A stretch of 24,509 nt of DNA, from positions 1-24,509 of the forward strand of contig JAGLPV010000022.1 of assembly GCA_023137195.1 (NCBI GenBank). Direction: 5' to 3'. The notes below the pieces were generated by a model. It had not been told where the DNA came from and did not search any database. It saw only the letters and a list, made by a program, of their open reading frames with translations. Positions 817 to 20,391 of this stretch are shown here, piece by piece. The position numbers and the translations under genes are program-made. The stretch's first letter is position 1. Every line of letters starts with the position of its first letter. This DNA is from Candidatus Aenigmatarchaeota archaeon (GTDB lineage Archaea > EX4484-52).

Positions 817-1261
817 ATGGATATAACAATAACCTTTGCGACAGTAATAGGAGTTTTGACTGTGATAGTTGGAATTCTGGTTAAAGTTCTGGGATTTCCA
901 GATCAATTTATGAAAAATTACAAGTAAATTTTTTAACGAAAAACAATAAAAGAGTCTTATGCCAAGTACTACTTTTAATGTCATAAATAAAGTTCCGGAT
1001 ATAATGTACTTTATTTAGATACGAAAAAATTTTCATGTTGTGTCTAAATTTGTACGTGATATATAGTTTATACACAACAAGAAAAAATCTACAGAAGGAT
1101 TATCTACTTTATTTATGCTTCTTGCATTTGTGTCTTATGTTTTATGGACAATCTATGGGTATCTGCAAAAGGACTGGGTTCTTTTAATTGGGCAAGGGAT
1201 GGGGATATTGACAACGGGAATGATTGTTGCCCAAATAATTTATTATCGAAAAAAGAAGTAA
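817..1261 (+). pseudogene. SemiSWEET/PQ-loop (MtN3) family transporter interrupted by a 157-bp insertion
   Basis: 817-924 reads MDITITFATVIGVLTVIVGILVKVLGFPDQFMKNYK, followed by TAA. 1082-1261 reads KKSTEGLSTLFMLLAFVSYVLWTIYGYLQKDWVLLIGQGMGILTTGMIVAQIIYYRKKK*. Joined they give a 95-aa, 3-TM protein with the P(D)Q..KNYK.KSTEGLS and LW..YG....D signatures. Confidence 0.85.
925..1081. mobile_element. Non-autonomous modular palindromic insertion element, copy 1 (157 bp)
   Basis: Flanked by a direct ACAAG repeat (920-924 / 1077-1081). Colinear and highly similar to 15617-15856. Removal restores the SemiSWEET frame. No credible ORF inside. Confidence 0.8.
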
Positions 1262-6600: not shown

Positions 6601-6667
6601 TAATACCTACCAATACAGCATATTATTCTAACCACTCCTGTTCCTTACGCTTACGACATTTTTCTGC
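6601..6667 (+). repeat. Direct repeat copy B (67 bp)
   Basis: Aligns with 5546-5613. Confidence 0.9.
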
Positions 6668-6742
6668 ATCCTTGCAAAATTTGCGTGCAGAAAAATACCA
6701 TGAAAATCGCTGGGCTTACGCTAAATACCGCGCTTTTCAAGG

Positions 6743-15527: not shown

Positions 15528-15616
15528 GCATTTATATTGTTATGTCACTTTACATATATAAAAGTTTCGGTTTTATATTGAAATTTCTATATAATTGATA
15601 TTATAAACGGCACAAG

Positions 15617-15856
15617 CAAATTTTTTAACGAAAAACAATAAAAGAGTCTTATGCTAATTACTACTTTTAATGTCGTAAATAAAGTTCCTGATGTAAAATA
15701 CACTTTATTTAGATACGAAAAAATTTTCATGTTGCAATAAAAGAGTCTTATGAAATTTACTTCTTTTAATGTTGTGTCTAAATTTGTACGCAATATACAT
15801 TTTATACCCAATATCTAAAGTTCCTTGCGAAATTATATACTTATATACACAATAAG
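15617..15856. mobile_element. Non-autonomous modular palindromic insertion element, copy 2 (240 bp)
   Basis: Flanked by ACAAG (15612-15616) and ATAAG (15852-15856). Homologous to 925-1081 plus two extra modules. Removal joins the kinase-like ORF in frame to LVPFIISII* ending at 15587. Confidence 0.8.
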
Positions 15857-16468
15857 AAAAATTATTGACTCTCCAGTCATACCGGAAAATACAGGCACGA
15901 TTAAATTATCATCCAATCTTCCGCTTATGGTCTCAACTATTGTCGCAACAGTTGCCATTGCTATCAAAATGACCCACCATGTAGGAGAAATAGCCCCAAC
16001 AAACAGCCAAAGATAAATCATTCCTGCAAGCATATCGGCAACAAATTCTGCGAAGACGCCCTCTGTTGCCTTGTTTTTTAACCCGGGGATAAAATGCTTT
16101 CCATATGCCCTGCCGAAAATCGCGGCAGAGGCATCGCCAAAAACAGCCATAAGTATCGACATTATTGCGACTTCCTTTGAAAAAACAGAAATCACAAGAA
16201 TCGCTCCAATTTCAAAGTACACGTGCCCGGCAAGTGTCTTTCTTTCTTTTTTCCTGTATGTTGCATCAAAAAACGGTATTTTTACGCCGTGCTCTATTCT
16301 CAAATATTCTGCTTCCAGTGCTATGACTAATGCAATCATAAGAACGATAAGGGTGATTTGCTTGCCAAAAAATTCATATAAAAGCACAATGAACAAGGCA
16401 TTCATGTGGATTAATTTCCTCATCAATTCTGTGGCAAATGAATATTTTTTTATTTTGGATGAGTTCAT
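15833..16468 (-). CDS. Dolichol/phytol kinase-like (CTP-dependent polyprenol kinase / SEC59 family) membrane protein
   Basis: E..RKLIH, GD..AA.FG..YG, K..EG, ET....DDNL..P. The current last residues (IVYISI*) are encoded by the inserted element. Confidence 0.85.
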   Translation of the reverse strand: MNSSKIKKYSFATELMRKLIHMNALFIVLLYEFFGKQITLIVLMIALVIALEAEYLRIEHGVKIPFFDATYRKKERKTLAGHVYFEIGAILVISVFSKEVAIMSILMAVFGDASAAIFGRAYGKHFIPGLKNKATEGVFAEFVADMLAGMIYLWLFVGAISPTWWVILIAMATVATIVETISGRLDDNLIVPVFSGMTGESIIFLIVYISI

Positions 16469-20071: not shown

Positions 20072-20169
20072 GACATGATTGCAAGTTGAATTATTTAAAT
20101 ATTTCTAATGGATTTTCTCTTTATAGCAAAACACATAATATATTTAATAGCATTTATGTATTTTGCTAG

Positions 20170-20391
20170 TATATTCGACCGCAAAGAGCGGGTGAATATA
20201 TTCGAAGACGCAATTAGCATAACGGGTAATATAATTGCGTTTGAGATTATATCGCGCCACATTACTTGCATTACTTTTGTGTCGTGATATAAAGTAAGAA
20301 ATTCTGTCTTATTATTTTTTTGATTATATGTATAGTGTGAACTTTATTCTGCTATCTCACAACACAAAAGCAATACGGGTATGTGGAGTGA
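20170..20391. other. Cluster of three hairpins, including a ~140-nt imperfect inverted repeat
   Basis: tatattc..gaatata (20170-20200); agacgcaatta/taattgcgttt (20206-20242); ccacat..ttttgtgtcgtga / tcacaacacaaaa..atgtgg (about 20252-20391). Confidence 0.6.

Follow-up and report, generated by a model that had tools for sequence, protein, structure and literature searches.

The PATEs of Haloquadratum are described as non-coding and often nested elements that have no inverted terminal repeats, carry palindromes close to their termini and produce no target duplication; the same account treats them as derivatives of IS200/IS605-type elements that are mobile though the IS200-type transposases have decayed (PMC3119063). 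The Rickettsia palindromic elements, as presented in PMC10969869, are short palindromic repeats that lie inside ORFs, can be translated and have an unknown mover. Small repeats without a transposase, such as PATEs, the 'small mobile repeats' of haloarchaea and the Rickettsia palindromic elements, are common, and their movement is largely unexplained. Elements of the IS608 type have similar hairpins at their left and right ends. The IS91/ISCR elements and the Helitrons insert between A and T without duplication; their ends are asymmetric, with a hairpin at the 3' end, and their target is like the donor nick site. Rolling-circle transposons have the ends TC...CTRR, and we know of none from DPANN archaea. 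REP/BIME with RAYT, BOX and the neisserial NIME are built as modular strings, in which hairpin units combine variably.

The DNA analysed here (24,509 nucleotides, referred to as the window) is contig C15 of a MAG of Candidatus Aenigmatarchaeota archaeon, here called G000, which has 1.42 Mb in 57 contigs, 35% G+C and a completeness of 84.8%; the genomes of its relatives measure about 1 Mb. The window contains two copies of a small non-coding, non-autonomous mobile DNA element, copy A at positions 921-1077 and copy B at positions 15613-15852, both on the + strand. They belong to a genus-restricted, recursively nesting, two-hairpin family, non-autonomous and duplication-free, with a soft preference for W^TRAAAAAA, and this PATE-like family is, or was, very probably mobile DNA. 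PATEs are the closest known class and, by the definition given in the description cited above, the one that fits best. The sequencing runs that contain the window sequence are labelled cold seep metagenome, come from one study and may include the source sample. An archaeal SRP RNA match adjoins two tRNAs in G000; its 79 bits fall short of the gathering score of 96.5. With the small genomes of the relatives and the titles of named records in which the repeat occurs, it puts G000 among the small DPANN-type archaea.

Copy A, a 157-base element running from CAAG to ACACAA, lies in the sense orientation in a SemiSWEET (PQ-loop) gene. The 5' part of this gene, with the first transmembrane helix (817-920, + strand), was identified by tblastn to an orthologue from another family of the order (L014) and by three database homologues (P0001-P0003); in the 3' part (1078-1261, + strand), 59 residues downstream of the copy match the Pfam profile MtN3_slv (positions 28-86 of 87, E 5.7e-9). 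Once the 157 bases, which carry stops, are excised, the SemiSWEET frame is restored and neither gains nor loses a codon. The three homologues (75-83% identity) and one order-level orthologue read NY[KR][RK]KST without a gap across the site, and in L014 the N- and C-terminal parts abut, AATTATAAG being followed directly by AGAAAATCC. Because the halves of the orthologue abut and the three homologues are ungapped, copy A is an insertion of 157 bases that cost the host no codon. The L014 orthologue (G006:C2, 1480-1820, minus strand) has TAA and TGA at the two glutamines (FPDQF, IGQG) of the window protein and the three homologues; it is either a decaying gene or a case of recoding.

Copy B is a composite of 240 bases, antisense to its host gene (15853-16468, minus strand) and placed in the last codons of that gene. 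By translation the product is a membrane protein, without a Pfam or NCBIfam match, whose last 8 codons are replaced by the insertion; the orthologue in genome G003 stops 9 residues after GES, a comparison of tails that is not decisive. A sequence-only reading of the window had already noticed the two homologous stretches, and both are present, with the start and end strings that it quoted. Positions 2-116 of copy A are 92.3% identical to 15618-15734 (117 columns), and positions 111-153 are 88.4% identical to 15769-15811 (43 columns). The observation of that reading that the element is sense to one host gene and antisense to the other also holds. That both excisions are in frame is right for copy A; for copy B, 8 codons from the stop of the gene, it carries no weight, because the gene with the copy and the gene without it differ in no more than a few codons at the end.

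The ends of the window copies were set by analogy with an exact filled/empty pair. A metagenome contig (L031) and contig C55 of G000 are 89% identical across a NUDIX gene and differ by exactly 90 bases. The insert in L031, antisense to the NUDIX gene, reads in the element orientation CAAGAAATAATTTTGC...AGTTTATACACAA, that is CAAG...ACACAA, between the flanks CCAGTTTTTT and TGGTTCC; the empty site in C55 is CCAGTTTTTT^TGGGTTT and contains no CAAG. These ends cannot be shifted, since neither the first nor the last base of the insert is the same as the flank base next to it. The pair thus makes CAAG the element's own, has the element end in ACAA and leaves no duplication. Neither a target duplication nor a shared core is seen in this one clean pair, in which insertion and precise loss look the same. 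The two ends are not complementary (CAAGYAAA... against ...TATACACAA), and insertion is blunt, without target duplication, terminal inverted repeats or shared core. Two orthologous intergenic comparisons with G003 (L006 versus C37 and L027 versus C1) are too diverged for placing ends. In L031, the 90-base unit (285-374) also forms 30 stop-free codons directly after the Nudix box, and a second hairpin insertion (about 497-560) ends the NUDIX frame at ...EDIYFRN; the open frame of the first copy may be due to chance, the gene being truncated as well by the second insertion.

By this analogy, the ends earlier placed at 925-1081 and 15617-15856 move by 4 bases to 921-1077 and 15613-15852, and the sites before insertion become, for copies A and B respectively, ATTA^CAAGAAAAAA and GGCA^TAAGAAAAAT. 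For copy A the earlier excision had merely been rotated by 4 bases, the host chancing to read CAAG at the right flank. Half of the target proposed at that time, ACAAG^AAAAA, is element, since CAAG is the 5' end of the element and is missing from the empty site, and the short shared core AAG/CAAG has no counterpart at the L031/C55 site. A model with a 4-base duplication of ACAA, which would save start codons, was rejected; it adds a SemiSWEET codon that is absent from four homologues, and L031/C55 shows no duplication.

All four junctions of copies A and B are crossed by independent contigs from four sequencing runs, by at least 31 bases, which speaks against the misassembly that the earlier reading had named as a danger. 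Among the joints displayed (from contigs of the four runs, not reads, with 8 further joints not displayed), none connects 920 to 1078 or 15612 to 15853. At position 15566, about 45 bases to the left of copy B, contigs of two runs diverge into other sequence and represent a strain variant.

A unit of the family comprises 81-102 bases: 5'-CAAK, a left (L) hairpin, the motif WTTTCATG (TTTTCATG), a right (Z) hairpin with the feet TTGT...ACAA, and the end ACAA-3'. Folding of copy A as DNA (-17.7 kcal/mol, z -3.03) gives, on the + strand, an L hairpin at 926-1032, with an outer stem in which 926-938 pairs with 1022-1032, and a nested pair of hairpins inside its loop at about 944-1019. The central motif TTTTCATG between the two hairpins, located by alignment of units, occupies 1030-1037, and the Z hairpin, TTGTGTCTAAA...TTTATACACAA, with 10 pairs and the conserved C.T mismatch, occupies 1038-1077 (both + strand).

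The stems are conserved as structures. The sequence of the L stem varies by subfamily yet stays complementary (AAATTTTTT/AAAAAATTT, AAAAATCTTTCA/TGAAAGATTTTT, AAAAATCCYGC/GCRGGATTTTT and AATAATTTTGC/GCAAAATTMTT). The Z hairpin, TTGTGTCTAAAC-loop-GTTTATACACAA, keeps its C.T mismatch at one position; four of its ten pairs have changed on both sides and column 75/106 is never paired. When 17 simple units are aligned, 89.6% of the cells in the L and Z stems are paired, against 25-58% with the partners slid; 8 of 22 stem pairs have changes on both sides, and the covariation score was reached by none of 500 shuffles. The two stems are unrelated in sequence, the loops are conserved and measure 14-18 bases, and the L hairpins terminate in T-runs.

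Units nest within units, in the loop of an L hairpin or just before a Z hairpin, and this yields composites of 150-450 bases, including both copies of the window. A CAAT...ACAA unit sits in the loop of the outer L hairpin in copy A and before the Z hairpin in copy B. The one in copy B is a complete two-hairpin unit, CAAT...ACCCAA (15735-15811, + strand), directly before the last hairpin, and matches the covariance model of the family over all 95 positions (E 1.8e-7); this stretch is missing from copy A, and the extra length of copy B consists of additional hairpin modules, which are themselves of the L and Z types. An empty loop on the L stem of copy A is found in two other copies (C2:41302 and C45:1563), and contigs C17, C26 and C56 have one composite of the L-loop type in common.

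Several other families of hairpin repeats fill G000, with members at 6657-6697 and 20124-20291 of the window and on many other contigs. Examples are GCTTACGA-CATTTTTCTGCA-loop-TGCAGAAAAATA-CCATGAAA and a repeat, roughly 200 bases long, that contains TATATCGCGCCA hairpins. Motifs like TCCTTRCRAAAT are common to the loops of these families and those of the Z-type hairpins.

The covariance model, built from 17 simple units, finds 40 units in G000 at E<=0.01 (13 of them training rows); the two copies recognized by the sequence-only reading are real, without being an isolated pair. BLAST, nhmmer and a library search likewise give dozens of partial and full relatives across many contigs. Among 42 genomes of the order, searched at E<=0.001, there are 36 matches in G000, 18 in G001, 18 in G003 and 2 in G002, which are the four genomes of the genus; outside the genus one weak match occurs in G013, and the model finds none in the other 37 genomes at this threshold. 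Five loci occur in public genome contigs: two MAG records under the title Candidatus Nanohalarchaeota archaeon hold four, and a Pelagibacteraceae record holds the fifth, which is taken for chance. A metagenome scan gives five loci, two of which (L028 and L030) are chance-like. The element is absent from the viral (two scans), plasmid and phage collections, and nothing in Rfam matches the copies at E<=1. A longer copy with the same ends and an ORF for a recombinase, an HUH enzyme or TnpB, for which the earlier reading suggested looking, was not found in G000, where every L-type end has a Z end within 454 bases. The limited library searched listed no account of elements like these from DPANN archaea.

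The flanks were compared in two sets. The first (n=24) comprises copies with both ends defined, 22 from G000, the L031 copy and one from G001; the second (n=36) comprises all model matches in G001 and G003, no rows being dropped and one being shared with the first set. In the second set, the ends read CAAT, CAAG or CAAA in 23 of 36 and ACAA in 20 of 36. At position +1, T is found in 19/24 and 29/36, and position +2 is A or G in 21/24 and 32/36, A being the commoner. Positions +3 to +8 are A in 15-22 of the 24 copies, with a maximum at +7 (22/24). The left flank is nearly uninformative, position -1 being A in 14/24 and 22/36 (T in 7/24). The mean number of A at +2 to +9 is 5.08 in the first set, compared with 2.32 at random T sites, and none of 5000 samples was as high. 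Insertion thus occurs between W and T of W^T-R-AAAAAA, with 0.3-1.2 bits per position in the right flank (n=24). The sequence specificity claimed earlier survives as this soft, A-rich preference of the right flank, in which the AAAAA is real; ACAAG does not belong to the target.

There is a resemblance between the preferred flank (TGAAAAAA, YAAGAAAA) and the 5' end of the element, CAAG-Y-AAAAA. In addition, TGAAAA, the usual right flank, and the TTTTCA(TG) that precedes the Z hairpin inside the element are complementary, which allows the stem to extend into host sequence. That such pairing guides targeting is an idea only: it fits the consensus, and against it stand the position +2, which is A oftener than G, and the internal TTTTCA variants, which show no co-variation with the flanks when the copies are compared by eye.

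Because of the right-flank preference, many copies lie just before ATGAAA start codons. Many have ACAATG at their end and a real gene after it, the last A of the element rebuilding ATG. Behind such copies, the profile match of a DUF190 protein begins at residue 9 and that of a GalU-type nucleotidyl transferase at residue 5, and in our reading of the sequence neither has an in-frame start upstream. The earlier ends would have left both genes without a start codon before insertion; with the corrected ends the site was A^TG and the ATG is restored. Insertion at A^TGAAA is consequently tolerated, since the terminal A rebuilds the start codon. In a pilin/archaellin-like gene (G000 C31:2572-3153; L045 173-754), an 84-base unit follows ATGAAAAAAA, the first three codons, and leaves the frame open; the pilin N-terminal domain starts at residue 33, and translation of the element would give a long leader ahead of KKAISPLIASV. 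Units of the family are also found just upstream of two open frames of about 10,900 and 5,670 codons (C54:19771-52503 and C1:111116-128137 of G000), which are giant genes.

No enzyme that could move the element was recognized in G000. This genome (84.8% complete) gives no match to Y1_Tnp, the TnpB zinc ribbon, the IS110 DEDD domain (PF01548) or Resolvase (PF00239), and tblastn with the TnpA and TnpB of its relatives reaches at best E = 1.1. Genes for Y1 enzymes occur in other families of the order, where the intact IS605 copies (G015 and G030) have unrelated ends. Within the genus the only trace of Y1 is a decayed C-terminal fragment of an IS200/IS605 TnpA (L042, G003:C64, 1501-1691; 32 bits, one internal TAG), and its surroundings contain no L or Z hairpins. 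A search for Y2 HUH enzymes (PF04986) gave no match in 31 genomes, and the control was likewise silent in 14 known genomes. The sequence-only reading had seen no transposase or recombinase in the window, which is correct and extends, for transposases, to the MAG. Its view of a DNA-level, non-coding, non-autonomous element without terminal inverted repeats, distinct from DDE MITEs, is borne out. The chemistry of IS110 or IS607, two of those that it named as closer, has neither an enzyme in the MAG nor a shared core at L031/C55.

In the explanation that we consider best, and to which as a whole we give about an even chance, a mobile two-hairpin element is transposed in trans by a single-strand, structure-specific, HUH-like process. 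The likeness and complementarity of the flanks suggest that one structure- and sequence-specific nuclease/ligase would nick both the donor end and the target. The element would move as folded single-stranded DNA, like IS200/IS605 and rolling-circle (IS91/Helitron-type) elements, and the enzyme would be supplied in trans from DNA outside the 85%-complete MAG. Taken separately, movement as single-stranded DNA by an HUH-like enzyme is a tentative proposal, somewhat less probable than the explanation as a whole. A further-reaching possibility, which we think rather unlikely, is a new kind of archaeal single-strand hairpin transposon, in which the 5' end would copy the nick site, so that the element homes to self-like W^YRAGAAAA or ATGAAAA sites and nests recursively, driven either by nucleases of a family not yet described or by a housekeeping enzyme in a DPANN archaeon wholly without a recognisable transposase.

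The strongest of the competing explanations, improbable in our judgement, is that a tyrosine recombinase moves the folded hairpins, in the manner of integron attC sites or through pseudo-dif sites, the candidates being the two Xer-like paralogues of the host. Two Xer-like tyrosine recombinase genes are indeed present in G000, and about 35 bases upstream of one of them lies a perfect dif-like 11-6-11 palindrome, ATTGCGTATAA-TATACA-TTATACGCAAA (C45:31060-31087; L035). Twenty-six bases of it are identical in G002 (C53:7140-7165) and G003 (C10:20269-20294), the three genomes being otherwise 20-25% different, and it is likely to be the chromosomal dif site beside its recombinase. Of the 11 positions of a dif arm, 10 agree with the consensus of the Z loop, TTATACGCAAG, and there is a likeness between the outer ends of dif and the hairpin feet ATTGT...ACAAT. 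Sites of the attC type carry extrahelical bases, of which the conserved stem mismatch is reminiscent. The likeness to dif is, however, weak by permutation (p 0.015-0.2), the 10-mer being expected about 6 times by chance according to our estimate, and no 11-6-11 dif-like match was found inside the elements. L031/C55 shows no shared core or overlap, and the break lies outside the hairpin arm rather than at the border of arm and spacer. The two paralogues, moreover, are spread over the order (25 and 24 of 31 genomes), while the elements are restricted to a single genus.

Slightly less probable still is that the units are mainly signals useful to the host, such as leaders that mask start codons, terminators or hairpins that bind protein or RNA, maintained in their spread by selection, with mobility being secondary. 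The many copies that end exactly at a start codon, where the stem can extend over ATGAAAA through TTTTCAT, agree with this, as do the T-runs at the ends of the L hairpins and loop motifs such as TCCTTGCGAAAT, which are common to hairpins with different stems, including those of other repeat families of G000. Against it, copies are found in both orientations inside coding sequence, where one has broken the SemiSWEET gene and one has hit the NUDIX gene, and the spread is limited to one genus. Nor do the units bring a promoter: in archaea a TATA-like element must lie further from ATG than 8-13 bases, and TTTATA, considered for this role and rejected, lies only 8-13 bases before ATG.

An element of the IS110 type (with a bridge RNA) or of the IS607 type, with AAG/CAAG as the shared core and ACAAGAAAAA as the target, was the earlier proposal and is now very unlikely. 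In its favour are the ACAAG found on both sides of copy A and of the copy at C2:41302 (ACAAG/ATAAG for copy B) and before 11 of 12 L1-type left ends, and IS492, of the IS110 family, reportedly uses CTTGT; against it, CAAG and a shared core are missing at the empty site, T rather than CAAG follows ACAA in most copies, and G000 has no DEDD or serine recombinase domain. Least probable of all is that no mobile DNA is involved: for copy A, sense to its gene and leaving an intact frame on removal, an archaeal bulge-helix-bulge intron would do, and the tandem hairpins with variable stems superficially recall the TIGR stem-loop arrays as outlined in PMC12045711, but an assembly artefact is contradicted by the junction-spanning contigs of four runs and by the family's presence in four genomes and in the named MAG records of other studies, an intron by the antisense copies inside genes (copy B, L031), and a TIGR-like guide array by dispersed copies with loops of 14-18 bases, too short for two 8-12-base spacers and boxes; Rfam, too, has no match at the copies at E<=1.

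The two-hairpin element can be compared with known mobile repeats. It shares with PATEs the lack of terminal inverted repeats, a hairpin near each end and, in one pair, the lack of a target duplication. It differs from them, PATEs being compared here by their description, in that the hairpin abuts the conserved flank without a spacer. PATEs insert next to a fixed target of 4-5 bases; here one flank is conserved, in the form of a loose A/T run, T-R-AAAAAA, with 0.3-1.2 bits per position, a pattern that recurs in the set of 36 copies. On two tested features membership of the class fails: the two hairpins of the window family are dissimilar, no cognate IS605-type element with similar ends being found, and a Y1 TnpA is absent from G000 (84.8% complete), with a decayed fragment in G003 only.

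The element resembles IS91 and the Helitrons in its insertion at A^T without duplication, its asymmetric ends, the Z hairpin at the 3' terminus and a target that resembles the donor end; unlike theirs, its ends are CAAK...ACAA, and no match to a Y2 HUH enzyme was found (31 genomes, control silent). Like the Rickettsia palindromic elements, so far as these are portrayed in the source cited, it can be translated, the 90-base copy being read through in the NUDIX gene and the 84-base copy forming a pilin-like leader; unlike them, most copies are intergenic, and copy A has stops. With the mosaic repeats of the REP, BOX and NIME kinds it shares modular hairpin units, and it differs from them in its direct nested order, its defined CAAK...ACAA ends and the absence of a RAYT (Y1) gene from G000. 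MITEs of the DDE type have terminal inverted repeats and target site duplications, both of which are missing here. IS110/IS1111 elements would call for a DEDD match and a shared core, and IS607 for a serine recombinase; G000 has neither enzyme domain, and L031/C55 shows no shared core.

Among small repeats without a transposase, this family offers sharply defined ends, a clear flank rule and recursive nesting. The host genome is very small, and the mover should be easy to find once that genome is closed. In MAGs of this kind, gene callers will misread the leaders, as in the pilin-like gene, and will split genes, as in SemiSWEET. An insertion element, as the family also illustrates, need not destroy genes when it settles at their start codons, its last base restoring the ATG.
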